A DNA stretch of 62,833 nucleotides, the filler included, from Basidiobolus ranarum (Eukaryota), in NCBI GenBank assembly GCA_040143965.1. It is 4 parts of 4 records of this genome, joined end to end, with 100 filler letters (N's around TTAATTAATTAA, not from the genome) between each part and the next. Parts side by side here need not be neighbours in the genome. Positions count along the whole stretch, not along the records: positions 1 to 15,731 come from JASJQH010000370.1; 3 more parts are not named here. One strand, written 5' to 3'. Below the pieces are notes generated by a model. That model was not told the DNA's origin. It made no database searches and saw only the letters and a program-made list of their open reading frames with translations. Positions 1-47,246 of this stretch are shown here, piece by piece. Position 1 is the stretch's first letter, and every line of letters starts with the position of its first letter. Position numbers and translations under genes: made by a program.

Positions 1-28
1 GGGGATGGGCTAGATACCTTTGGCTCTG

Positions 29-113
29 GAAATTAAGCTTGAGACAAGAGGCATTGATTATGGGAATGATCAGACTAGAAATTAAGCATGAGACAAGTGT
101 CAGTGATCAGGGA
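29..113. repeat. Imperfect direct repeat (49-bp period) upstream of the DDCC gene
   Basis: gaaattaagcttgagacaagaggcattgatta (29) vs gaaattaagcatgagacaagtgtcagtgatca (78). Confidence 0.8.
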
Positions 114-186
114 GGTTGTCAGCATGTGAGGAGTATCAAATAGCCAGATTTCCATCCCATCAGAGGTAATACTCCCAGGTTAGTCT

Positions 187-274
187 TTTTATATATAAGC
201 AAAGCATCTGCTTTTACACTTAACACTATCTTCTTCCTCTCCCACTGCCACTCTTCAAATTCTCTATCTCCAAT
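187..274 (+). promoter_or_regulatory. TATA box and pyrimidine-rich leader of the DDCC gene
   Basis: TTTTATATATAAG about 80 nt before ATG 275, CT-rich leader, AAT-ATG start context. Confidence 0.65.
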
Positions 275-694
275 ATGAAGTTCTCCTTCTCCAAAGTCAC
301 CTTGGTTACCCTGCTTGGTGTTGTTTTCATGACCAAGGTACTCTCCCTCCCTCAAGGCCAGGCTGGGCACTCACTTCAGAAAAGGGGAGGCAGAGGTGGT
401 TGGGATGACTGCTGTGATGATTGTTGTGATGACTGCTGCTGGGATGATTGCTGTGATGATTGTTGTGATGACTGCTGCTGGGATGATTGTTGTGATGATT
501 GTTGTGATGACTGCTGCTGGGATGATTGCTGTGATGATTGTTGTGATGACTGCTGCTGTGATGATTGTTGTGATGACTGCTGTGATGATTGCTGCTGTGA
601 TGACTGTTGTGATGATTGCTGCTGGAACTCTGGTAGATACTTCTTGAATAGCACTGATTGTGTTTTCCAGATCACAAAAATTTATTTGAGGTAA
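275..694 (+). CDS. Secreted Asp/Cys-repeat protein: signal peptide, KR site, (DDCCDDCCDDCC[W/C])n; last ~22 aa derive from antisense copia sequence; gene or pseudogene
   Basis: MKFSFSKVTLVTLLGVVF signal-like N-terminus, SLQKR|GG Kex2-type site, TATA upstream, repeat units vary mainly at third codon positions in this frame. Confidence 0.7.
   Translation: MKFSFSKVTLVTLLGVVFMTKVLSLPQGQAGHSLQKRGGRGGWDDCCDDCCDDCCWDDCCDDCCDDCCWDDCCDDCCDDCCWDDCCDDCCDDCCCDDCCDDCCDDCCCDDCCDDCCWNSGRYFLNSTDCVFQITKIYLR
404..625 (+). repeat. 39-bp tandem repeat (about 5.7 units, 12-bp subunit) coding 34 Asp, 36 Cys, 4 Trp
   Basis: gat gay tgy tgt gat gay tgy tgt gat gay tgc tgc tgK units. Confidence 0.97.
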
Positions 695-2735
695 AAAATC
701 TGCATTTTCAGCAAAAGCCACATTTCTGCACTTAATTAACTTCTGTTTTTTGGTATCAAACAGTCTGTAGGCCTGAGATCCATCACAGTAACCAATGAAT
801 ATGCATTATCTGCTTTTTGGTTCCAATTTAGAGCACTTTTGAGCTGGAATAAGGCAATATGCAGGGCAACCAAAGATCCTGAGATGAGGCTCACTTGGTT
901 TTGATCCATAAAGGGCTATAAATAAAGTTCACTTTGTAGCAATCTTGTTGGGCAGCTGTTTTTGATATAGACTGCAGTCAACACAGATTTAGCCCAATAT
1001 TGGTAATCTAAATTTTGATCTTTTTGCATTGATATTGCCATCTCAACTATAGTTTTATTAGCATGTTTGGCAACTCCATTATGCAGTGGAGTATAAGCTA
1101 TGCTAGTTTACTGCTTAATTCCATGTTTAATACAAAAACAAGCAAATTCTCTAGAGCAGCTTTCTCTACTATTTTCACCCATCAGTACCCTTAATTTTTG
1201 TGCTGATTCTTTCTCAGCCATTGCTTTGTAGTGCTTGAATGTAGCAAAGGCTTTAGGTATTGATTTGAGAAAGAATACCCAAGTACAACTTGTTTTTGTC
1301 ATCAATAAAGCACATAAAATACCTTTTGTGACCTAGTGTGACTCTTACATGGGCCCACATAGGTCATAATAAATCAAGGCTAAATTCTGAGTGGGAATCT
1401 CTCCAGCACTTGAAAATGGCTATCTGTGATGTTTTCCATATATTCAATCTTTACACAGATCTAATTCAGTGATATATGCAATTTCTTAGCCTGGAACAAG
1501 CTGATTTAAATCATTTGGATCAGTTTTTGTTCCCCATCATGGCCTAATCATCTATGCCACATATGACAGCTTATTTCACAGGTCTTTGCCAAGTTTGCAT
1601 GTTCAGGATGCACTTTGTTGATTTCTTTCTTGTATAAGTTTTGAGTTTTGAGCCAAGTAGCTGATTTGGTATTATTTTGATCTGTGATAGTGCATCCAGC
1701 CTTGCTGAACACAAAACTTAGTCCTTGCGTTGTTGCTTGGCTTACTGAGAGTAGATTTGTGACTATATTTGGCACATGTAGTATATCATTCAATTTTTCA
1801 GATGTTGTAGCTAGATTTTGTTCTAAACTGAGCACAAGTGCACCCTTACCAGTTGCATATAGTGCATAGTTTTCACCTCAGTAGAATTTCCTTTTTTGGC
1901 TGGGTTTTAAGCTGGAAAGCCAATCTTTCTTGTTTGACAAATGTAGGGAAGCTCCTGAATCAATGTACCACAATTCTGAGCCTTCTGCAGTGGTTACTGA
2001 TAGGGCTGACTCAAGTACATGACTCCTATCAGTGCATACATGATTTGCCTGCTCTAATTTTTGCTTGTTGGCAAATATCCTTTTTCCACATCTTACAGCT
2101 CGAAAAAATGCCTGATCTGTATTACTTTGCTTGGCATTAGATCTCCACAATTCCTCATTCAAAAGCCTAGCACCAATATATTCCATTGCTTATGGCCGTG
2201 ATCTTGGTTCTAGGGTAATTATGAGGTTCCCAAAATTGTCTGGCAGGCTCCTAAGTAGTATCTTGACTAAGTCATCTTCATTTAGAGGAGCTTCAATGGA
2301 TGAGAGCTGACCGGCCATAGTTTTGATCTGATTTATGTGATTAGCCATAGAATCATCAGAGTTATTCAGAATTGGGACTCATTTTGGCCCAAGATATAGC
2401 CCTATTGGCCAGACTTTTAGTCTCATAGAATACCCCAAGTGTTTCCCAAGCAGTTTGGATATTCTTGGCTGAGTGTATGTGCCTCAATAGAGAGTCTCTG
2501 ATATGTGGACAAGATGTACAGAGTGCTTTCCTCTGCATCTTGTTAAAGGCAAAGATAGCTTCTGGTGAACCCTTTGGCTCTATTTCTTCTCCTCTAACAA
2601 ATCCTCAAAGGTCTTTGTCTTTTAGCACTATTTGCATCTTGAACTTCCAAAGGTCAAAGCCATCACTATCAAATTTTCTATGGAAGCAAAAGTATTGGTA
2701 AGAGTACTGGTAGTTTCTCCTTTAACAGCTACCAT

Positions 2736-2748
2736 GGGACTCATAACC
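2736..2748 (-). promoter_or_regulatory. Copia primer-binding site (initiator tRNA-Met half-molecule type)
   Basis: GGTTATGAGTCCC directly after the LTR end (...TTATCA) and directly before the gag ATG at 2735. Confidence 0.85.
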
Positions 2749-2879
2749 TGATAAAAGTGTTTGGGGGATTTGGAATGTTATTTTCTATCAACTTAGAAGT
2801 TCTCAGACATAAAGTTTTGGTCAAGCTTGTGCAGGAAGTCCTAAACTTTGCACATCTGTTCCTGGGACCTTCATTAACA
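2749..2879 (-). repeat. Short (~131 bp) 5' LTR of the copia element
   Basis: TGTTAA...TTATCA termini on the minus strand, adjacent to the PBS; partner LTR not seen. Confidence 0.65.
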
Positions 2880-2989
2880 CATTCTACACATTAGTTTAGC
2901 TTATCTTGACATAACCACCAATGTGAACTTTCTACTCAAGAAAACAATGAGTGAAAACCACCCATTTCTCTAATTCTCCAAATTCCTTC

Positions 2990-3300
2990 TAGCAGGCACC
3001 CAAATACTTTAACAGTAACCACATTTCTGGGTTTAGTATGTTTTTCTTCTTTTGCACTTCTATCAAATTGATCTTTGCTTATATGGCCAGTTCTTTTATA
3101 GTAATCACATGTTGTGTTACTTTTTTTCTTGATGTGCTTTGGCACTATGTAGGAATGTTACCCATATTTTTTTATAGCATTAACTTTGTTCTTTTCATTG
3201 CCTTCTCATTTGCATATATCTTCAACCATTAACAAATCCAATATATTTAGTCCCAATCAGATTGCCAATAAATCTTTCTCCTTCTGAAGAGGATCAGAGG
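2990..3300 (-). mobile_element. Second retrotransposon gag remnant (degenerate CCHC knuckle)
   Basis: TCDYYKRTGHISKDQF resembles Cx2Cx4Hx4C. Confidence 0.5.
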
Positions 3301-3334
3301 AACAACATTTTGATACTATCAATCATGTATTGAC

Positions 3335-4920
3335 CTATATCACCAGTGCTCACAGATAGCTTCTTAGTGCCTTTAATTATGAAATTGAGCAGTTATATAA
3401 TGGTATTCAAATGAATTAATATTTTTTCAAAGCTAATATCATTATATGTATTAGTAACAATCCTGCCATCAGTAAACTTGGAGGTTTTAGTAGGCAAAAT
3501 GCACTATCTTCCTCTAGATCCTGTCAGATCAACAAAGTTTACTTTGCCAGGCATCCAAATTGCTACTATCTAAATACAACACTATGCATCATGGTTTGGC
3601 AGCATTAGGAGTTGTTTATGCAGGTTGTCAACATACTCTAATGCATCAAGCCATATTGGCAGATCCCAATAGTCACAGCAACGGTGCAAAGATTTTGTAA
3701 TTTAATATGAAAAACTTTATCACTGGTTGAATGAAGATATATGGAATCTATGCCAGTTTCAATACATTACCTGCTTCATCTTTCACAATGCTTAGAGATT
3801 ACAGGCACTTGCTATACATTCTGGAAGTTCCCATTGGAGTGTACCAGTAATGGAATGATGCTTCATGTAAAATTGTCAGTATAACTGTATGCTGATCTGA
3901 TTAATAATGGTTCAGCAAAATCAGTAATGGGTATAATGCAATGTGTATGGAGACTCCAGACTATATTAACCTTCCAACACAAGGCTCTTTTCAGTGTACT
4001 CATGGGTTTTTGCACTGTTTGAGCACAATAACAGTTACAAACCCCAATCCATGGACACACATTAATTACCACTGTGAATGGAACTATTTTGGTCATGTGT
4101 TAAAGTGACAGTCCTGGTAGCAAAGCTGCAAGACAGACTTCTTGGAGAGAGAGATCAAGAAACACAGTTTCATTCTTTTATCAATGGGGTAATCTATTTA
4201 AGCAATAACCCATCTACATATGGAAGGACATTTGTTGACCATAAGAGAAGGATATTTTGGCTGAATTCTTTGCAGAAATTTGAGATAGACCAATATACAA
4301 TGTACTGTTATTTTAGCCATGGGGTAAAAATTTGAGCAATGATGTTTCTACCTGTGCCAAGACATTTGTTGACTGCCAGTTGAGGATGTTTTGATGAATT
4401 CTCTAGGGAAATTTGCAAAAATCCAAGAGCTTACTTTCACTGTCAATGGTAACATGAGTCATCTATTTGCCAAGTGCCAGTGCTACTCCAAATATAGATG
4501 TTTAGCAATTATTCCTTCATTTGTTTGCTGCTAAAGCATGATAATGTTGTTACATTATGTCTGATCAATCAAGTATGTGCAAATGTAGAGACTAAATCCA
4601 TGGAGTTTCTTGTGTGTTTTGATTTCATTATGGCTGAAATAAAAAGCCCAAAATATCTCAATTGAGACACACACATTAATTTGAATTCCTAGATCAGTAA
4701 ATTCAGTAATATGCCATTCAAAGAGTGGTTTTTTCCAATCATTGCTGGAAATTAACTAATGCATGCCAAATTACAGGTTTAATGCTTCACCATGTATGAT
4801 TATTGCTGTAATACCATTGAGAAGCCATTATGACACCATCAAAATATCTGGTAGAATTCAAGCCACCATTATTATGATGGTCCTGTAATAGCTTTGTGTT
4901 CAAGTTTATTTTTCTTAGGG
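3335..4920 (+). mobile_element. CMC/EnSpm-like transposon, deleted 3' half including right terminus
   Basis: Colinear with 13460-15353; DSFLVPLI motif and EYEKLY/IHxLLHL-type C-terminal region; ends TTTATTTTTCTTAGGG at 4920. Confidence 0.85.
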
Positions 4921-6845
4921 AGTATTGGAATTTGTTGAATCATAAGTGCATAGTGCCTATTGGAAGCTCTGGCTCCAGCAAATCCCCTTTAAAAATATAA
5001 TCTCTGAGCTATTGCTGAACCCAAGTTTGATGTTTTACTGGCTGTGTCATGAATTGTTATCAATGAACATGTTGAAATCTAACCAGGGTTTTAATGGTAT
5101 AATCATTGTGTGTAGTGTTGTATTTGGATAGTAGTAATTTGTATTTCTGGAAGAGTAAACTCCATTGATCTAACATAATATACTGCCAGATAGTGAATTG
5201 GGCCAAAATTTGCTCATTGAGAAACCAGTCAGCCCCAATGCAAATGTAAGATCATTTGATATCTCAAAGTAACCTTGACTTTTGAGATTCTGGCAATGAT
5301 ATCCATCAGGTTTATTGGTAATACTTAGAGCTTTACAGAGTACTTTGGTACCAGATCAATGATATATATTTGTGTGATTTCATCAGAGCTAGAAGAGAAA
5401 GAATTAACATTATGTATGGCTAATATGATCACCATTTCCATGATTCAGTGAATGCCAACTGTGTGCAAGTAGTATGTGATTTCAGGTTTTTCAGATCACT
5501 GTTCAGGGCCAAACAACCATTTGGATATCAATAGAGTTGAAATGCTGAAGGATTAAATGTCACACAAATGACAAGTGTTTTCCACTTGTAACAGGTGTGT
5601 GGCAAGCAAAAGTTGCTGATTAACTGTGGTAAAGCTGGAAGAAAACCAATAAACACCTGGTTGCCAAGATTGGATTGAACTCACCACTCCTGAATAATCA
5701 AAGCTGCTTCCTTTACTGTAAGTGTTATGAGTGGACTAATGCTTGCCAACAACAAAGAGTCTGTGACAAAACTATCATCTTGTTCTGATATGTGGGCATG
5801 AGTACTGGAATAACCAATGTCAACATCTAGCAGCATGTCCCCAAAGTTTGCTGGACTTATTGATTCAACCAAAGTGGCCTACTATCTATGTTGTACTGGT
5901 CATATAGCTGTGATAACTACATGGTATCTTGAGTTTCAATAGGATTACTGTAACTATGAGGCAAAGCACAGCTAATGGACTCATCAGGTAAAACTAAAGT
6001 TGTTTTTGTACACTTGCTACAATTGAAACTCACCAGGCTTTGTGTAGCTGGTGGCTTTGTACAGTGGTTGTGCTACGGATTATTGTTTCCATGAAGCCTC
6101 CAGCTTTCATAGCACAAGAATTTGTGCCAATCATAGCATGGCCTCTTTTAACATTTACATTGTGTCATGAAAAGTACATTATAGAAAAAGGAATACCCAT
6201 TTTGAAGAGATGATGTTTTAGCTATATCCTGCCAATATCATTGGTTGACTCTGAGAGAGTGTCACAGATGTGTTATCAAGGGATCTACAAGATTGTCCAA
6301 TGATAGATTGCATTTTGGTTTATCATGAGTTGTTTCTAAGATATATCATTCAGCAAGTTTACCATCTGTGTATTTCATTGCCATTGAGAAAGTAATCAAA
6401 ATTCAAACTAAAATTGGTGTTGAAGAAGAAATCTGCTGGCAGGAATGGGAAAGAAGGTGGTAAGAACCTGGAACTTAATAAATGAGCAGTGTAGGCAATT
6501 ACTATCTACTTTTGAAGGCATTAACATGCCAGGAACTAACTCAAGAAATGATGAAGCAGTAATCATTTACCCAAACTATTGCTTTATATCAAAAGTGCCA
6601 CTGAAGATATTACAATCTTACAGTTACATGGTAAATTATTAGTCAAGCAAACAGAAACACAGTCATGACCATCAACTTCTAAAATGCTTATTTTGAATGC
6701 TATGGAATATCCCTCTGTAGACAATCAGGCTAGAATCATTACAACAAGGGAATCCTGGACAGAAGACTGTAATGAAATATATGTGCTCAAAAGCAAAAAA
6801 TACAAAGTTGCTAAACAGGCCATGATAAGTAATTTAAATGAAACT
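4921..6845 (-). mobile_element. CMC/EnSpm-like transposon fragment, inverted and more diverged
   Basis: Reverse complement aligns with ~11880-13905 (e.g. 4945-4980 vs 13843-13885). Confidence 0.85.
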
Positions 6846-6849
6846 TTAA

Positions 6850-7065
6850 CATCCGTGGATGTATATTAAACAGTTGTTTAGGTGAAATTGCCAAGATCAT
6901 TCTAATATAATTAAACTCTGCTACAGGAGCAAGTGTTTCTATATAGGCATCTCCTGGTGTTTGGGAATAGCTTTTAGCTATTTTTATAGCCTTGTACCTC
7001 TCTATATTGGCATCAGAGTTATTTTTAACTTTATTCACCCATTAGCAGCCATCTGCTTTTCAACC
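6850..7065 (-). mobile_element. Copia reverse-transcriptase (RVT_2) N-terminal fragment
   Basis: WVNKVKNNSDANIERYKAIKIAKSYSQTPGDAYIETLAPVA matches YKARLVAKGYSQ..G.DY.ETFAPV. Confidence 0.9.
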
Positions 7066-7069
7066 ATCT

Positions 7070-8892
7070 GTACATGACTGCAGGTTTTTCAGATCACCAG
7101 TGAAAGCCAAACAACCATTTGAACATGAAGGTAGGTTAATTACTGAGGGACTATAATTCATACAATTGACAAGTGTTTTCCACTAGTACCAGGTCTGCAG
7201 CAAGCAAAAGTTGCCAGTCAATTGTGGTAAAAGTGTAAGAAAACCATCAAAGACCTGGTTGCTAAGATTGGATAGAACTCTCCACTCCACAATAATGAAA
7301 GCTACTTCCTTTACTGTAAGTGTTATAAGTGGATTATTGCTTACCAATAACAAAGAGTCCATAACAAAACCATCATCTGGTTCTTCAACTTCTGATATAC
7401 TACCATCAGTACGGCAATAACCAAGTTCAACATCCAGCAGCATGTCCTCAAAGTTGTCTGGACTTACTGGCTTGAACAAAGTTAAATTTCTATCTACATC
7501 ATACTGGTCATATAACAGTGGTAACTCCCAAGTATCTTGACTTTTGGCAGTGTTACCAAATATTTGAGGCAAAGTACAGTCAGTGGACTCAGTGGGAAAA
7601 ACTAAAGTCAATTTTGTCCACTTATTACAGATGACATTCACTAGGCATTGTGCAGATGGTGGCTTTGTGCAGTAACCATGCTTGTGATTGTTTTTTCTAT
7701 GAAGCCTCTGGCTTTCATAGCACAAGATTTGTTGACAATAATAGCAAGGCTTCTTTTAATGTTGGTGTTGCAGCATGAGAAGGATATTGTGGAAAAAAGA
7801 ATACCTCCTATGTAAGGGTGATATTTTAGGCATAGCCCATCAATATTATCAGCTGCTTCACAGATGGTGTTGCAGATGATTCATCAGGGGACTTACAAGA
7901 TTTTTCCATTAATGTATGGCAATTTTGGTTAATTACAAATGTTTCTAAGCAATTTCATTACACCGAGTTTACCATCTGAAAATTTCAATGCCATTCAAAA
8001 AGCATTCGAAATCAAAATTAAAATTGCCTTCCAGCCAAAGCTTGCTGGCACAAAAGGAAAAAAACCAGCAAGAACAGAGGACTTAGTTAATGAGCTGTCT
8101 AGTGATCCACTTTCCACTTTGGCTGGCATTAACATGCCAAAAATCAAGTCAAGTAAGGATGAAGCATTAATCAGTTTACCAGATATGTCCCTTTCCAGCA
8201 ATAGTACAAGTACAGAGATCATAATCCCCCAATTATGTAGCATATCAATAGTTGAGCAAAGCTTAACCAAAACACCATCAAGACCTTCAACTTCCAACAT
8301 GGCTACTCTGCCCACTATTGAACAACCCTCCATACAAAATATGGATAGAATTATTACAACATGTGAAATACAGGCAGAACAACATAATGATTTGTATGCA
8401 ATCATAAGCAGAAACCACAAAGTTGCTATACAGGCCATGATCAGCAGTAATGCCACATAGAACAATTAATGCAGCATTTGGAAGCAACTAATCAACAGTT
8501 AGAGAGTCACTCAACAATGATACAAGACCTTCAGAATCTTGTACCTGACCTACAGCACCATGTTGCTCCCTCCATCCATTCTCATACAGGATTCAATAAA
8601 TCTCACACCATACTTATGAACATCTCCTTGACAATCAAGCAGAGCAGAATATGTGTTGGACCATTAAGCCTACACAATGTCCTGAAATTGCCTGGGCACA
8701 TGAAATTAGAAATCTCATAGGAAAACTGGCAAACCAAAAGACTCTGATTGTAAGAGCTGCTGTCACTTGCTCTGATGATGAGTGGTTAAACATTTTAGAA
8801 ACTATGTGGAATCTGGCCCAAAATCACCTGGATCTGAGCCAATTGTGGAAAAACCAAAAACCAGGTGATACTCTGAAGGTTCCTGACTTATT
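7070..8892 (-). mobile_element. CMC/EnSpm-like transposon fragment, inverted; its accessory ORF reads on + from 7939
   Basis: Reverse complement aligns with 11440-13085 and 8893-10545. Confidence 0.88.
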
Positions 8893-10764
8893 TCATGAGA
8901 TTTCTACTTTCATGTGCCCAAGCAATATGGGTTGTTGCAAAGGCTTAATGGTCCAACACATATTCTGCTCTACTAGATTGTCATGATGACATTCATATGT
9001 AAGGTGTGGTATTGATTGAAATCCCATATGAGAGTGGACAGAGGGAGCAGCATGTTGATGTAGCTTAAGTATACAATCCAAAGGTCTTGTATCATTGTTA
9101 ATTGACTCTCCAACTGTTTACTAGTTGCTTCCAAACGCTTTATTAATAGCAATATTGTGGCATTATTGCTTGTCATAGCCTGTATAGCAACTTTGTGGTT
9201 TTTACTTATGATTGAATACAAATCATTACAGTGTTCTCCCTGTAATTCCCTTGTTATCATAATTTTATCCAAATTTCCTACACAAGATTGTTCTGCAGTT
9301 GGCAAAGTAGCCATTTTGGAAGTTGATGGTCTTGATGGTGTTTCTGTTGAACTTTGCTCAACTATTAATTTACTATGTAACTGGGGTTTACAATTTCTTC
9401 ATTTACATTATTGCTGGTAAGGAACAGATTTGGTAAATTGATGAATTTTTGATCATTATGTCAGTTAGTTTCCAGCATGTTAATGCCTACCAAAGTGGAT
9501 AGTGGAATGCTAGACTGCTCCTCAATTAAGTCCTCTGTTCTTGCTGGTTTTTTTTCTGTTGAGCCAGCATGCTTTTACTTGGAAGTGGATTTTGATTTAG
9601 ATTTTGAATACTTTTAAAATGGCATTAAGATTCTTAGATGGTAAACTTGGTATAATGAAATTGCTCAGAAACAGCTTATAATAAACCAAAATTGCCATCC
9701 ATTACTGCAAATATCTTGTAAATCTGTTGATGACTCATCTGTGACACCATCTCAGAGTCAGCTGATTATATATATGGGAAATACCAAAAATACCACCTTT
9801 GCATAGGAGGTGTTCTTTTTCTACAATATCCTTCTCAAGCTGCAACACCTACATTAAAAGAAGCCTTGCTATCATTGTCACAAATTCATGTGCTATGAAA
9901 GCCAGATGATTCATAGAAAAAATAATCACAAGCATGGTCATTGTATATAGCTACCTGCTACACAAAGCCTGGTGAATATCAACAGTAATAGGTGCACAAA
10001 ATTGACCTTAGTTTAGCACACTGAGGCTGCTGGCTGTGCTTTACCTCAAAGCTTTGGCAACATTGCTGAAAGTCAACATACCTGGGATTTACCACAGTTA
10101 TATTACCAGCATGATGTAGGTAGAAATTCAACTTTGGTCAAACCAGTAAGTCCAGACAACCTTGATGCCATGCTGCTAAATATTGATCTTCGTCATTCCA
10201 GTACTGATGGTAGCATATCAGAAGATGAAGATGAAGAAGACAATGGTTTTGTTACAGATTCTTTGTTATTGGCAATTATTAGTCCACTCATGTCACTTAC
10301 AGTTAAGGAAGCAGCTTTGATTATTGAGGAGTGGAGAGTTTAATCAAATCTCAGCAACCAGGCATATATTGATTTCTTACACCTTTACCACAGTTGATTG
10401 GCAACTGTTGCTTGCCACAGACCTGGTGCAAGTGGAAAACACTTGTCAGTTGTATGACTTAAAATCCTTCAGTAATTAAACTGCCTTCATGTCCAAATGG
10501 CTGTTTGGCTTTTACTGGTGCTCTGAGAAACCAGGAGTCATGTACTGTTTGCACACAGTTGACAATCACTGAATCAGGTAAATATTGCTCATATTCAGCT
10601 TACTTATCATTGATTCCCTATCTTTAAGTCTTGATGAAATCACACAAATATAGATCATTGAACCATTACCAAACTACTCACTGTAAAGCTGATGGTATTA
10701 CCAATATACTTGATGGAATTCATTATCAGAGTCTGAAAAGTCAAGGTTCTTTTAGAACACATAA
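8893..10764 (+). mobile_element. CMC/EnSpm-like transposon fragment interrupted by insertion of the 10765-15353 copy; resumes at 15354-15422
   Basis: Colinear with 11610-13304; ...gaacacATAA | ATAAgatcatgcatttgc rejoin to match 13295-13370. Confidence 0.88.
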
Positions 10765-10990
10765 CCCTAACTGAAACTTGAGGATTGTTATTGTAGGAAA
10801 ACCATCACAATTTTAATCCATTTAGGATTGACCATTTACTTACTTACTGTCATAAAATATGCAGTTAGATTTGATTTTGATCACATTATTAAGTTACAGG
10901 AGTGAAATTTCAAGATCTCACAAAATAGTTGCACATGATTGGCTACAATTTTGGCAAACTATGGATCAATGCATGTGCAAAAAGCATAAC

Positions 10991-12390
10991 TCAAATTTTG
11001 CTTGCCTTCAACTTTGAGCTTATTTCAACACTTTGGAAAGTACCAACTGGGGTTGGAGAGCCATGAGTTTTATTTTCTGGTGATTTGGCTTGTTCAGAGG
11101 TGCCAGGTGTTAGATGAACTTCCAAATTTAGTACTCTTCCAACTGGTGTGCATGGATGCGTGGTGAAAATAAGCTTTCTTGCCTGTATATCTGACTCTGG
11201 AAATGCAGATCTTTGTAATGGTGTGGAGAATTTGGTAAGTAGGACAGTAGAGCCTAAACTCACAGGCTCTTCTGCTTTACCCTTGGGTTTACTAACTTCC
11301 TGCTCCTTAAGCACTTCTTTAGCTGTTTTTCTTTCTTTTCCAAGTCAATAATTGCACACTTTTTTGAGATGTTTCATGAATAGGCCTAGACCAGCCAATT
11401 GGCATTTGCATGCAAAAACCCACAATAGGCAACACAAATTAAGTCAAGAACTTTCAGAGTAGCACCTGGTTTTTAGTTTTTCCACAATTGGCTCAAATCC
11501 AGGTGATTTTGGGCAAGATTCCAAACAGTTTCCAAACTGTTAAACCACTCATTATCAAAGCAAGTGAAGGCGGCTCTGACATTTGGAGTCTTTTGGTTTG
11601 CTGAGTTTCCAATGAGATATCATATTTCATGTGCCCAAGCAATTTCATGTTGTTGTGTAGGCTTAATGGTTCAACACATATTGTGCTCTGCTAGATAGTC
11701 ACAGTGACACTCATATGTATGGTGTGGGATTGATTGAATTCTATATGAGAATGGACAGTGGGAGCTGCATATTGGTGTGGCTCAAGTACAGCATTCCAAA
11801 GGTCTAGTATCATTCTTGAGTGACTCTCTAACTGTTAACTAGTTGCTTTCAAATGCTGTATTGATTGCAATATTGCATCATTATTACTTATCATGGCCTG
11901 TATAGCAACTTTGTAGTTTTTACTTCTGATGGCATACAAATCATTATGGTGTTCTCACTGCAAATCCCTTGTTGTGATAATTGTATCCAAATTTTCTGCA
12001 GAGAGTTGTTCAATCATGGGTCAAGTTGCCATTTTGGAAGTTGATGGTCTTGATGTTGTTTTGGCTGAACTTTGCTCAACTATTGATTTACTATGTAATG
12101 AGGGATTACAATCTCTTTACTTGTACTATGGCTGGAAAGGAACACATCTGGCAAATTGATTAATGCTTCATCATTATTTGAGTTAGTTTTAGGTATTTTA
12201 ATGCCTTTCAAAGTGAATAGTAGATTGATAGACTGCTTGTCAATAAAGTCCTCTATTCTTGCTGGTTTTTTTCCTTTTGTGCCTGTAGGCTTTGGCTTGG
12301 AAACAAATTTTGACTTGGATTTTGAACACATTTTGAATGGCATTGAAATTTTCAGATGGTAAACTTGATGTAATGAAATTGCTTAGAAAC
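10991..12390 (-). pseudogene. Accessory ORF of the transposon (unknown function, S/T/P-rich plus coiled-coil-like segment), divergent from the transposase
   Basis: Same reading frame recoverable in four copies (6330-6845, 7939-8892, 8893-9670, here); broken by stops. Confidence 0.65.
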
Positions 12391-12479
12391 AGCTTATAAT
12401 AAACCAAAATAGCCATCCATTACCGGAAATGTCCTGCAAATCCCCTGCTGACTCATCTGTGACACCGTCTCAGAATCAG

Positions 12480-15070
12480 CTGATGATATTGATGGCCTAT
12501 ACCTAAAATACCACCCTTACGAGGGAGGTGTTCTTTTTTGTACAATATCCTTCTCATGCTGCGACACAAACATTTAAAGAAGCCCTGCTATTATTGTTGC
12601 AAATTCTTGTGCTATGAAAGCCAGAGGCTTCATAGAAAAAATAATCACAAGCACGGTCACTGTACAAAGCCGCCAGCTGCACAAAGCCTGGTGTATAACA
12701 AAGTAATAAGTGCACTAATCAACTTTAGTTTTGCCTATTGAGTCCACTGACTGTAGTTTGCCTCAAAGTTTTGGTGGACAATGGTTTTGTTACGGACTCT
12801 TTGTTATTGGCAAATATTAGTCAACTCAAAACACTTACAATAAAGGAAGCAGCTTTGATTATTGAGGAGTGGTGAGTTCAATCCAATCTGAGCAGCCAGG
12901 TGTTTATTAGCTTTCTTACACTTTGACCACAGTTGATTGGCAACTGTTGCTTGCCACAGACCTGGTACAAGTGGAAAACACTTGTCAATTGTATGACTTA
13001 AAATCCTTTGGTAATTGAACTACCTTCATGTCCAAATGGTTGTATGCCTTTCACTGGTGATCTGAAAAACCTGAAGTCATGTACTGTTTGCACACAATTG
13101 GCAATCACTGAATCAGGTAAATATTATTCATATTTGGCTCACAGACCATGGATTTCCTGTCTTTAAGTTTTGATGAAATCACCCAAATATAGATCATTCA
13201 TCCAATACCAAAGCACTCACCATAAAGCTGATAGTATTACTCATATACTCAATGGTTATTAGTACCAGAATCTGAAAGGTCAAGGTTTCTTCGAGAACCT
13301 GTATGATCATGCATTTGCACTGGCTCTTGATGGTTTCTCACTAAACAAATATATCATTGGAAAGGCTTGCTGGCCCATAATTTAATTAACTTAAATCTTC
13401 CTCCTTCTGAATGGTATAAGGGTCATAATATTTGGGTACTATCCACCATATCTAACCTAAATCACCAGTGCTCATATAGATTGCTTCTTGGTGCCTTTGA
13501 TTGCAGAATTTTAATGGTTATCTAATGGGGTTTAGATGAGTGAATATTTTATTAACGCTAATATTATTGTATGTATTGGTGACACTTCTGCCATCAGTAA
13601 ACTTGGAGATTTTTGCTGGCACAATGCAATATCTTGCTGTAGATTTTGTCAAATCAATGGAGTCTACTCAATCAGGCATATGCTTTACTACTATCCAAAT
13701 ACAACGCTAAACTCCATGATTTTACCATTAAGTGCCTGGTCAGATTTCAAAATGATCACTGATATCAATTCACCAAATAGTGAGTCTAACATCAAACTTG
13801 GGATTAGACATAAGCCTAAGATTATATTGCTGAAGGAGGTCAGTTGGAGCCAGAGCTTCCCATCAGGCACTATGCACTTATTATTCAACAACATTCCAAT
13901 ACTACTTACTTAGCTATATAGTGCAAAATTCATTATGTATGAGCCATTTGAGATAGGATCAAAGTTTGAATCAATTGGGAAAATGCTTGAACATGTCAAG
14001 ATACCATCATATTTTACCAGGACTCCCATCAATAACCACTCATCTAGGCATTTATTCAAATACAAAGACTGGAAGTATAGGATTGGTATATATTCAAGTG
14101 GAATCTTGAAAAGATCTCTGACTGATAAGTATTGGCAACATTGGGAGTTGTTTATGGATATTGTTAATATATTCTTGTGGCATCAACTCACATTGGCAGA
14201 TCTCAGGCAGATATAGTGACTGTGCCAAGATTTTGTATTTGAATATGAAAAACTTTATTACAGGTTTAAAGAAGATAGACTGAATCTATGCCAGTATTGA
14301 ATACATTCCCTGCTGCATCTCTCACAATGTTTAGAGATTATAGGCCCTTGCTATACATTCTGGGAGTTCCCAATGGAGCACACCTGCTGTGAAATGATGC
14401 TCCATGCAAAATCGTCAATATTACCTTATGCTAATCTGATTAATAATGTATCAGCAAAATCAGTGATTCATGTAATGCAATGGGTTAAAGAGACTCCAGA
14501 GTATATTAATCTTCCAACAAAGGGCTTTCTTCAATGTGCTCATGGGTTTTCACATTGTGTGAGCACAATAACAGCAACAAAGACCAATCCATGGACGCAG
14601 AGTAAGTACCTCTATAATTTGGACTAACTTGTTTGTGTAATCATCTAACAGTATTTCTGTGAAAGCTGCAGTACAGACTTCTTGGTGAGATAGATGGAGA
14701 TATACAGTATTATTGTTTTAGCCATGGGGTAATCTATTCAAGCAATGACACATCTACTTGTGTCAGGACATTTGTTGACTGCAAGTTGGGGATATATTGG
14801 CTGAATTCTTTACCAAAATTTGCCAAAATCCAAGAGCTTATTCTCATTGTGAATGGTAAAAGAGTCAGTTATTTGCCAAGCATTGGTGATATTCAAAACT
14901 TTAGATATTTAGCTATCTCTCCACAATTAGTTTGCTGGGGGCATATTGCTGTTGTTGAGTTATGTCTGATCAGTCAAGTACATGCACATGTAGAGACTAA
15001 ACACAACAAGATTCTTGTATTTTTTGATTCTCTTTACATCTGGAAAACAAAGCCTAAAATAACTAAATAA
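12480..15070 (+). pseudogene. Tnp2/Transposase_21-like DDE transposase pseudogene
   Basis: FALALDGFS, CWPII/LNLPPSE, GDTSAISK..F.WHNAISCCRFCQING, MHLLFNN, YTFWEFPMEH motifs in order. Confidence 0.85.
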
Positions 15071-15420
15071 AGGTATGTGCATTATTTCAAATTACTACAG
15101 CAGTAAACCCAATAATTTGCCATTTGAAAATTATATTTTGCAAAAATTGCCAGAAATTAATAACAAATGCCAAATATGTGGATCAATATTTTAACATATA
15201 TGAATACCATTATAATACCATCAAGAAACTGCCATCACACAATCAAAATCCCTGGCAGATTGCAAGTCACCGATATTGAGATGGTTTCTGACAGTTTAGC
15301 AATTTAGAAAGGTGGATCTGATCCAGATCAAATCGATTTTATTTTTGTTAGGGATAAGATCATGCATTTGCATTGGCTCTGAATGGTTTCTCACCAAACA
15401 AATATGGAGTTGGAAAGGCT

Positions 15421-15731
15421 TGTTGATAGTCTGGTGACTTGTGATAAAAGCAGTAATTCCTAAAGAGGAAAATATGGAATATGGTGACTGCATCTGAACA
15501 CAAAGTCTAAGGCCAATCAGTTGCTTATATAGCTGAAATGCCAAAGTACCATACATTGACAGCCTAGGTTAAGGTTCCCTAGCAATATAGGCATAGCATA
15601 CAAGGACTGGTAGCTCAGTGGTTAGACCACCTTGCTAAAGTGAAGCAGGTCCCAGGCTCAAATCCTGGCCAGACCAATATTTCTCCCTAAATAAATTCAA
15701 TAAAGCTTGCTGTCCAATAATTCAAATTAAC
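15421..15731 (+). mobile_element. Probable LTR (~311 bp) containing a tRNA-like sequence
   Basis: Starts TGTTGA where transposon homology stops; CCAAT 15513, TATATA 15526, two AATAAA ~15689-15704; ends TTAAC at the contig break. Confidence 0.5.
15604..15676 (+). tRNA. Degenerate tRNA / tRNA-derived sequence (nominal anticodon AAA; isotype unreliable)
   Basis: 73-nt cloverleaf spacing: GGACTGG/CCAGACC acceptor 6/7, TAGCTCAGTGG A box, perfect CCAGG/CCTGG T stem; mismatched D and anticodon stems, B box mutated (GGCTCAAAT). Confidence 0.75.
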
Positions 15732-15831
15732 NNNNNNNNNNNNNNNNNNNNNNNNNNNNNNNNNNNNNNNNNNNNTTAATTAATTAANNNNNNNNNNNNN
15801 NNNNNNNNNNNNNNNNNNNNNNNNNNNNNNN
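15732..15831. other. Artificial contig linker
   Basis: 100 nt: N44-TTAATTAATTAA-N44, stops in six frames. Confidence 0.97.
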
Positions 15832-17022: not shown

Positions 17023-18099
17023 ATGAAATTTTCTACTACTTTGATTCTAGCCATCTCCAGTATCTTCTCCATTGTTCTAGGCCAAGACCATTCGAATCAT
17101 GGAGGTACAAGTCCCGCACCCAACAATAGTACTCTTCCTATGGACAGTCCGTGCTATACTGATCCCACAAGTGCAACTTGTGCAGATTTCAAGATGGAGG
17201 GTGCTACTTTAGATGCTAGTATTCTAAGTCTTTGTAAAGCTATGTCATACATGCCTGGATGTAGCGTTAATAAAATATGTACCGACTCGCCTACCTATAG
17301 TGCTAAACCTTGGTGCAGTAAGATGTCGATTGTGGCTAATGTCTGCCAAAATGACATGCCAAAGATGGCCGGGTGCAAAGCTTGGGTTTCATTATGCGGA
17401 AATAGCACCTCCGTAGTGAAGCAATGCAAAAGTGAACCAGAGATTTCCAACATTCCAACCACCGCAGAAGCCTCGGCATTAATCAACAGCATCTGTACCG
17501 AGATGAATATGCCAGGATGTGACAAATGTCTAGCTGTTCCTAAAGCTTGTGATAATATCTCTACTTATTCCGATTTGTGCAAGTCTATGCCCGAGATGAG
17601 CCAGTGCAAAAAATGGTCCACTATGTGCCAAGCCACTCCTGATCTCCCTTTCTGTACTAGTGGCACTACTAGCAGCGGAGAGCCTGCTCCATCCATGATC
17701 ATGTATTTCCACACTGGTATTCACGAGTACATTTTATTCAAGAATTTGATCCCCAAGACTAGTGGTCAATTGGCAGGAGCTTGGTTTGCTATTTTCTTCA
17801 TTGGTGTGCTTTACGAAGGATTTGGTGTTTTCCGCGGAAACCTCGAGTCCAAGTGGGCAATTACTAACCAACCTTGCTCTTCATTATCTTTGGGCTCCTT
17901 TACCGCCAGCTTACCACGTGATTTTATCAGATTGGCCATGAGATTTGTCGATGCTACTGTTGGTTATTGTCTCATGTTGATTACCATGACATTCAATGTA
18001 GCATTATTCTTCTCTGTCATTGCTGGATTAGCAGTTGGTAGTTTTTTGTTTGCCAAATTCCGATCAGTCTCAGTTGAACCTAAAGCTGGTTGTCATTAA
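17023..18099 (+). CDS. Ctr-family copper transporter with signal peptide and Cys/Met-repeat ectodomain
   Basis: MIMYFHTG..ILF, MLITM (MxxxM), GLAVG (GxxxG), C-terminal GCH; four CxxMxxMxxC-like motifs; intronless. Confidence 0.93.
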   Translation: MKFSTTLILAISSIFSIVLGQDHSNHGGTSPAPNNSTLPMDSPCYTDPTSATCADFKMEGATLDASILSLCKAMSYMPGCSVNKICTDSPTYSAKPWCSKMSIVANVCQNDMPKMAGCKAWVSLCGNSTSVVKQCKSEPEISNIPTTAEASALINSICTEMNMPGCDKCLAVPKACDNISTYSDLCKSMPEMSQCKKWSTMCQATPDLPFCTSGTTSSGEPAPSMIMYFHTGIHEYILFKNLIPKTSGQLAGAWFAIFFIGVLYEGFGVFRGNLESKWAITNQPCSSLSLGSFTASLPRDFIRLAMRFVDATVGYCLMLITMTFNVALFFSVIAGLAVGSFLFAKFRSVSVEPKAGCH

Positions 18100-31444: not shown

Positions 31445-31544
31445 NNNNNNNNNNNNNNNNNNNNNNNNNNNNNNNNNNNNNNNNNNNNTTAATTAATTAA
31501 NNNNNNNNNNNNNNNNNNNNNNNNNNNNNNNNNNNNNNNNNNNN
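31445..31544. other. Artificial contig linker
   Basis: Same 100-nt N/TTAATTAATTAA spacer. Confidence 0.97.
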
Positions 31545-47146: not shown

Positions 47147-47246
47147 NNNNNNNNNNNNNNNNNNNNNNNNNNNNNNNNNNNNNNNNNNNNTTAATTAATT
47201 AANNNNNNNNNNNNNNNNNNNNNNNNNNNNNNNNNNNNNNNNNNNN
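47147..47246. other. Artificial contig linker
   Basis: Same 100-nt N/TTAATTAATTAA spacer. Confidence 0.97.

Follow-up and report, generated by a model that had tools for sequence, protein, structure and literature searches.

Comparison with the closest described systems

Metallothioneins, in their classical definition, are cytosolic proteins that have no signal peptide and contain few or no aromatic residues. Natural phytochelatins, in which carboxylate and thiol side chains alternate on a flexible chain, are gamma-linked and made enzymatically, while EC20, (Glu-Cys)20-Gly, is described in an excerpt of PMC4611968 as a directly translated, cell-surface-displayed "synthetic phytochelatin" that binds Cd, Hg, Zn, Pb, Cu, Ni and As. 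We compared these systems with an open reading frame (ORF) in a stretch of Basidiobolus ranarum DNA of 62,833 nucleotides (assembly GCA_040143965.1), which we call the window; the ORF lies on its first piece (JASJQH010000370.1), referred to as contig 1. The ORF begins with ATG, occupies positions 275-694 of the plus strand, encodes 139 aa, ends in TAA and contains a tandem array of Asp-Asp-Cys-Cys units, hence (DDCC)n. The explanation towards which we tentatively lean is that the ORF is gene-derived and was built by minisatellite expansion, and that this copy is probably inactive or truncated.

The predicted product resembles metallothioneins in its very high Cys content, its CC pairs, its small size and its presumed thiolate metal binding. 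It differs from them in its signal-peptide-like start, its pro-region, its five Trp residues, its content of about half Asp and its strict minisatellite period. The missing profile match, the signal peptide and the Trp residues together indicate that it is not a metallothionein, as far as such sequence features can tell. An earlier, sequence-only reading of this DNA had set the ORF apart on the ground that metallothioneins lack signal peptides, which fits the classical definition. The rule is not absolute, since a passage in PMC2441471 mentions "small secreted metallothioneins" for haustoria of the rust fungus Uromyces fabae. By analogy, EC20 appears to be the chemically closest system, as its alternation of carboxylate and thiol groups is also that of the ORF. 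The ORF departs from EC20 in having DDCC instead of EC as its unit and in being natural, known here from its sequence, and it departs from natural phytochelatins in being a ribosomal alpha-peptide specified by Asp and Cys codons.

Kex2-processed repeat proteins (KEPs) are fungal secreted precursors with a signal peptide; the ORF has a KR site and tandem repeats as they do, together with a putative signal peptide, and the sequence-only reading had likened the ORF to them. That likeness did not hold up. According to an excerpt of PMC6339444, a KEP gives at least four fragments after cleavage at KR or RR (or KK), with the repeats between the sites, whereas the 139 aa of the ORF contain one KR, zero RR and zero KK, so that two fragments would result and the repeats are not split by dibasic sites. 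The supplement of a KEP survey (PMC7329392), in the part available, lists Basidiobolus meristosporus CBS 931.73 with the number 43, under a column whose header is not shown. This is apparently a count of KEP candidates, and secreted repeat proteins may commonly undergo Kex2-type processing in Basidiobolus. The string DDCC was absent from the supplements of two KEP surveys in the parts available.

Small secreted Cys-rich proteins of transposon-rich compartments (the "two-speed genome") are also like the ORF in being small, in having a signal peptide, in being orphans next to transposons in hypermutated DNA and in being missed by annotation. In contrast to the ORF, whose core is 48% Cys in a low-complexity lattice, these effector-like proteins usually have a few spaced Cys in a folded knot. 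The two-speed-genome concept itself comes from plant pathogens and not from Basidiobolus. The ORF falls into the loose class of the small secreted cysteine-rich protein (<300 aa, Cys-rich, no transmembrane segment after a heuristically judged signal); the predicted mature part of 102 aa has 37 Cys, and the only hydrophobic stretch is N-terminal.

Anatomy of the ORF and its repeat array

The ORF and its upstream region were divided into the following features.

26-63 and 75-112, plus strand: a 38-nt direct repeat present twice, the copies being 82% identical and 49 nt apart
190-198, plus strand: TATA-like stretch (TATATATAA), its first base 85 nt 5' of the ATG
275-346, plus strand: signal-peptide-like N-terminus (residues 1-24), MKFSFSK followed by a hydrophobic core and VLS, assigned heuristically
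347-385, plus strand: pro-region of 13 residues ending in the sole dibasic site, K36-R37 (nt 380-385)
386-400, plus strand: GGRGG linker ahead of the array
401-625, plus strand: tandem array with a 39-bp unit, composed of 12-nt GAT-GAY-TGY-TGY subunits and a TGG/TGT spacer
626-694, plus strand: non-repeat tail of 22 codons (NSGRYF...IYLR) and TAA stop, either a native 3' end or the antisense of a copia linker

All elements of the architecture proposed earlier, namely the TATA stretch, the signal peptide, the KR site and GGRGGW followed by 74 residues of Asp, Cys and Trp, were thus located, the signal peptide by heuristic. The N-terminus has basic residues at K2 and K7, a Kyte-Doolittle 11-residue mean of up to 2.65 and V-L-S at positions -3 to -1. 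We judged signal peptides with a crude heuristic filter applied to ATG ORFs of at least 40 aa, which passed 6 of the 204 such ORFs in the window, two of these six being annotated exported or membrane proteins. On contig 1 the filter passed 3/58, the (DDCC)n ORF among them. A TATAWA sequence within 200 nt upstream was found for just one of the five annotated genes of the window. The pair of 38-nt direct repeats lies about 160-250 nt 5' of the ATG and is possibly a duplicated promoter or regulatory element.

The core of the array is 75 aa long and consists of 36 Cys, 34 Asp and 5 Trp, counting the W of GGRGGW. Tandem Repeats Finder placed the repeat at 401-618 with a period of 39, 5.6 copies, 94% matches, zero indels and a score of 366. 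The array holds 17 DDCC subunits of six sequence types, and Cys is always paired or tripled (CC or CCC) in the core. The strict 13-aa period that had been described is close to correct; the series consists of four W(DDCC)3 units, one C(DDCC)3 and one short C(DDCC)2 unit, and a terminal W closes it. A search of the window with the (DDCC)2 DNA pattern, allowing up to two mismatches, gave 13 matches, all within the array, and there were none in 100 shuffles. Identity between units was 91-97%, compared with 72-89% among the neighbouring transposon copies, and on this measure the array units are younger than the transposon copies that surround them. AlphaFold2 run on the single ORF sequence gave a mean predicted local distance difference test score of 46.6 and a predicted template modelling score of 0.16, unusable for fold comparison.

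On the explanation that we prefer, the ORF would represent the 5' portion of a gene, restricted to its lineage, for a small secreted protein of a Basidiobolus-like fungus. Slippage or unequal crossing-over would have amplified a 12-nt GAT-GAY-TGY-TGY sequence into the 39-bp unit, now present in about 5.8 copies, and this amplification may have yielded a lattice of Asp, Cys and Trp alone, reading in phase with the signal peptide and the single Kex2-type KR site. The original C-terminus has probably gone. Were the ORF translated, the product would enter the secretory pathway and be cut after about S24 and after KR37, which would free a polyanionic peptide of about 100 aa with 37 Cys. Its likeliest chemistry would be either to bind thiophilic metals and Ca2+ as a polydentate thiolate/carboxylate ligand or to become extensively cross-linked by disulfides. 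A function of this kind, metal binding included, is plausible from the composition of the peptide.

Codon variation and regional loss of CpG

Among the 17 subunits, variation was confined to columns 6, 9 and 12, all of which are third codon positions; the chance that three variable columns of 12 would all land on third positions is P=0.018. In the 39-nt register 6/6 variable columns were third positions (P=5e-4). Three invariant T columns may be held by mutation and not by selection, because a change from T to C would make a CpG there, and when these were discounted the hand-calculated P was 1/84. Since unequal crossing-over can shuffle a few old variants through an array, we take P ~0.01-0.02 as the honest figure. 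On this conservative estimate, the codon pattern points to past constraint on the reading frame.

The sequence-only reading had also seen a sign of function in the silent T at junctions that could have been CpG. The pattern does exist: T ends each of the 17 first-Asp codons and likewise 11/11 of the second-Cys codons that precede G (the latter read by eye from the unit listing), whereas the annotated genes of the window have C before G at 43/120 two-fold NNY-G junctions and contain 20-51 CpG per gene. As evidence of function, however, it fails against the background of contig 1, where the observed/expected (o/e) ratio of CpG is 0.05 (28 CpG in total), with TpG at 1.44 and CpA at 1.47, compared with 0.66-0.76 for CpG, 1.09-1.14 for TpG and 1.04-1.20 for CpA on the other three contigs. 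There is zero CpG in nt 1-694, so none falls inside the ORF, and a copia fragment next to the ORF has o/e ratios of 1.28 for TpG and 1.46 for CpA. Because CpGs have gone from the entire contig, including its transposon debris, the silent T reflects regional mutation and not selection specific to this gene. The loss on contig 1 probably came from long-term cytosine methylation or repeat-targeted hypermutation.

Such a background raises the question of whether the Cys/Trp lattice is itself an artefact of CpG decay, in which Arg codons CGY and CGG became TGY and TGG. In that case the ancestral plus strand would have read (DDRR)n, or the ancestral minus strand (RRSS)n; an antisense ORF (376-675) on the minus strand now reads (QQSS)n. 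In keeping with this idea, the regional CpG loss is extreme and comes with an excess of TpG and CpA, and the four Arg codons left in the ORF are all AGR. The antisense frame also accommodates the variation equally well or better, as every difference between units is synonymous there, TGG/TGT included (codons read by eye). But this antisense ORF lacks both an ATG and an upstream promoter and lies outside the copia frame. Decay after amplification should have left about half of the affected codons as His/Gln or Asn, and the flanks do show both products about equally, yet the array has 41 TGN codons and, as had been noted before, zero CAN or AAY codons. Any C to T change must therefore predate the amplification, and the amplified array would always have read DDCC. 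To judge from the codons, decay after amplification is excluded unless selection intervened. We consider an origin of the lattice by CpG decay quite unlikely.

The contig and the junction with a copia element

Four separate contigs of 15731, 15613, 15602 and 15587 nt make up the window, with N runs that enclose TTAATTAATTAA between them at 15732-15831, 31445-31544 and 47147-47246, so that gene adjacency across these spacers is artificial. The features of contig 1 around and beyond the ORF were as follows.

1-15731: contig of the ORF, with nested degenerate repeats 72-89% identical, an RVT_2 fragment and no recognisable host gene
701-2604, minus strand: degenerate Ty1/copia-type fragment with Pfam matches to gag (2193-2604), Pol beta-barrel (1551-2189) and the SH3-like domain of integrase-C (701-805)
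6814-7041, minus strand: RVT_2 fragment (Pfam)
13536-13910, plus strand: weak, sub-threshold match to an IS1595 transposase zinc-ribbon (Pfam E 0.0032, 17.8 bits against a cut-off of 25.4)

The copia-type fragment was recognised by Retrotran_gag_2 (E 3e-11 and 3e-7), Pol_BBD (2e-7 and 9e-7) and SH3_retrovirus (5.6e-10). Its Gag, Pol beta-barrel/protease and integrase C-terminal SH3 domains stand in copia order, with coding pieces that are split over three frames and riddled with stops. Pfam found no RVT_2 at coordinates below 701, where reverse transcriptase should follow integrase. The stop codon of the ORF lies 7 nt from the end of the SH3-like domain (about 701), and the minus-strand frame of the element stays open through 626-700. 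The sequence-only reading had missed this truncated element at the 3' end of the ORF. Because an internal copia domain directly adjoins the array, this junction is not an insertion boundary; it marks either a breakpoint, from a deletion or a rearrangement, or a mis-join. A search for a close copia relative by which the junction could be placed found none.

We also weighed a chance origin, either as a minisatellite that happens to be open or as an assembly mis-join at the tandem repeat, close to the end of a contig. Five of the six frames of the array are open, so openness proves nothing; 274 nt separate the start of the ORF from the end of its contig, and the assembly is fragmented; and the boundary with copia is not that of a normal insertion. 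Set against these points is the combination of a TATA stretch, an ATG, a signal-peptide-like start (background about 2/57 among the other ORFs of contig 1), a KR site and the correct frame, for which a rough product of about 1e-3 can be put forward. A purely random ORF is unlikely given this anatomy, and we give chance or mis-assembly very little weight.

Further along contig 1, beyond 2.7 kb, 2/54 ORFs of at least 60 aa matched Pfam at E of 0.01 or below, and neither was a host gene. The region 3400-15700 is dense in nested direct and inverted degenerate repeats; for example, 8463-8893 is 84% complementary to 11437-11867.

Searches for relatives

The exact ORF was absent from a set of about 15 billion public proteins in which 5/5 other proteins of the window that we tested were present, and it was evidently never annotated. 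The sequence-only reading recognised no family for it, and the profile searches agree. A Pfam scan at E up to 10 gave zero families, the metallothionein families included, and NCBIfam likewise gave zero. A PDB sequence search returned just one irrelevant match (E=3), and searches of the ESM Atlas with the whole protein and with residues 38-117 gave no usable match.

A word-indexed protein search gave 6 proteins with E of 1 or below among 1826 candidates, all matching through the repeat only, and the prepro region alone (residues 1-44) yielded zero candidates in a protein search. HMMER against 1.84 billion representatives returned six matches at E of 0.001 or below, which were confined to the repeat region or were other periodic proteins. 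Of the five inspected (all but P0010), only P0001 resembles the array, with 77% identity over 48 repeat residues; the other four are unrelated periodic proteins. A search for related loci gave 192 metagenome and 41 genome pattern matches, none of which was confirmed by tblastn. Literature searches found no DDCCDDCC-type strings, no relevant Asp/Cys-rich phrases and nothing specific under general terms.

Exported (DDCC)n proteins in unrelated organisms

The exact (DDCC)3 coding pattern was found at two loci in prokaryote genomes, 24 in metagenomes and one in viral contigs, giving 22 distinct ORFs; the viral-contig locus is the same ORF as L007. Two of the 22 pass the crude signal-peptide filter, and the remaining ones are mostly short and without a start, or are parts of large proteins. 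One of the exported examples has the following location.

Locus L001 (Thermosporothrix hazakensis), 1222-1731, plus strand: L001 protein

In L001 (also L024) a hydrophobic N-terminus is followed by HSHH, a (DCCD) stretch, a spacer rich in Pro and Thr, and LPPTG. Directly 3' lies a sortase gene (1775-2485, plus strand), followed by a LanC-like gene (2568-3035, minus strand), and because of the LPPTG motif and the adjoining sortase gene we take L001 to be exported. L002/L003 have a lipoprotein-like start, while L012 has a signal peptide and a long Cys-rich body. P0002 and P0003 are homologous, bacterial-looking metagenome proteins with a common signal peptide (GILKRI..L.V.GLL) that end in (C/W)DDC-type repeats, and P0002 has HGHGHHHGH just before its array. 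Neither could be named from Pfam or NCBIfam.

These proteins and P0001 share with the Basidiobolus ORF an export signal, a short spacer and a (DDCC)n-type stretch. Their arrays are short, with 3-5 DDCC, they belong to no named family, and their similarity to the ORF is nil beyond the repeat. When the prepro region and the tail were compared with the look-alike loci by tblastn, the best E values were 1.1 and 1.6, and no common flanks were found. Judged by sequence, the look-alikes are convergence or compositional coincidence and not homology. By analogy, the recurrence of an export signal with a (DDCC)n layout mildly favours a role at the surface or outside the cell, perhaps one in metal binding. 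One could go further and regard (DDCC)n as a convergent extracellular metal-binding module, a ribosomally encoded phytochelatin, with the Basidiobolus ORF as a live, conditionally expressed gene missed by annotation. Such a module would take the form of a secreted Kex2-released peptide in a zygomycete and of sortase-anchored, lipoprotein-type or secreted proteins in bacteria, some with His-rich stretches alongside. We regard this whole view as doubtful.

Weighing a decaying gene against an active one

A currently active, conserved chelator gene is a less likely reading than a decaying gene, because the region has lost its CpGs, copia abuts the 3' end, and the ORF has neither annotation nor relatives. 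Several observations nevertheless weigh against decay. The ORF is intact across 139 codons beside a copia element riddled with stops. Its third-position-only variation is what a gene under selection would show, and the existence of exported (DDCC)n proteins in unrelated organisms fits a live gene. The 75 nt of 626-700 could be attributed to either side of the junction, so that truncation is a deduction. Moreover, small secreted-protein genes in transposon-rich compartments often escape annotators and can be conditionally expressed, and for this reason the facts that the ORF is unannotated and lies in a transposon island are weak evidence of inactivity.

If the gene were functional, its product might be exported, processed by Kex2 and, as a (DDCC)n peptide, chelate metals outside the cell; it would amount to a ribosomally encoded thiol/carboxylate polymer of the phytochelatin type. 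The gene-like anatomy, the codon variation and the density of 36 Cys and 34 Asp in 75 aa all speak for this. So do the His-rich stretches ahead of the array in two unrelated bacterial proteins (HGHGHHHGH in P0002 and HSHH in L001) and the surface anchoring of L001 through its terminal LPPTG with the sortase gene next to it. Cys residues made in the oxidising secretory pathway tend toward disulfides rather than free thiols, and those of the peptide would tend to be oxidised, which counts against chelation. The argument from selection at CpG junctions fails, the locus has the CpG loss of silenced transposon DNA and a 3' end abutted by copia, the Ctr transporter of the window is on another contig, no metallothionein profile matched and no orthologue was found. 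A working analogue exists in (Glu-Cys)20 on the cell surface, as an excerpt of PMC4611968 describes. Taken together, we consider a functional chelator unlikely, though less so than the other functional roles weighed here.

The same oxidation in the endoplasmic reticulum would favour a secreted peptide with a structural or adhesive role, not a chelator: a polyanionic matrix component of the wall or spore surface, held together by disulfides and Ca2+ bridges. The anatomy is again gene-like, and, from composition, Cys pairs every four residues and a charge of about -34 would favour intermolecular disulfides and bridging by divalent cations. However, no homology to wall or adhesive families was found, the 22-aa tail has no glycosylphosphatidylinositol or other anchoring signal, and the doubts about the activity of the locus are the same. 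There seems to be only a slim chance that the peptide has such a role.

Returning to the gene-derived, probably inactive or truncated copy that we prefer, its value as it stands is mainly cautionary, since a protein that looks designed can arise from minisatellite growth in a decaying gene. CpG avoidance needs a check of the regional background before it is read as selection, and genes that appear adjacent in the window sit on separate contigs. Should the peptide be made, it would provide a natural, secreted equivalent of the engineered (Glu-Cys)n chelators and give a gut-associated fungus a new extracellular route to handle Cu, Zn, Cd or As.

Other genes of the window

The gene content of the window is fungal. 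We considered and rejected a linkage of the (DDCC)n ORF to a copper transporter of the Ctr family at 17023-18099 (plus strand; Pfam Ctr E 6e-27), which lies on a different contig. The transporter has a signal-peptide-like start and a Cys-rich N-terminal ectodomain of 227 aa ahead of the Ctr domain, and shares 88% identity with a protein named from Basidiobolus ranarum.

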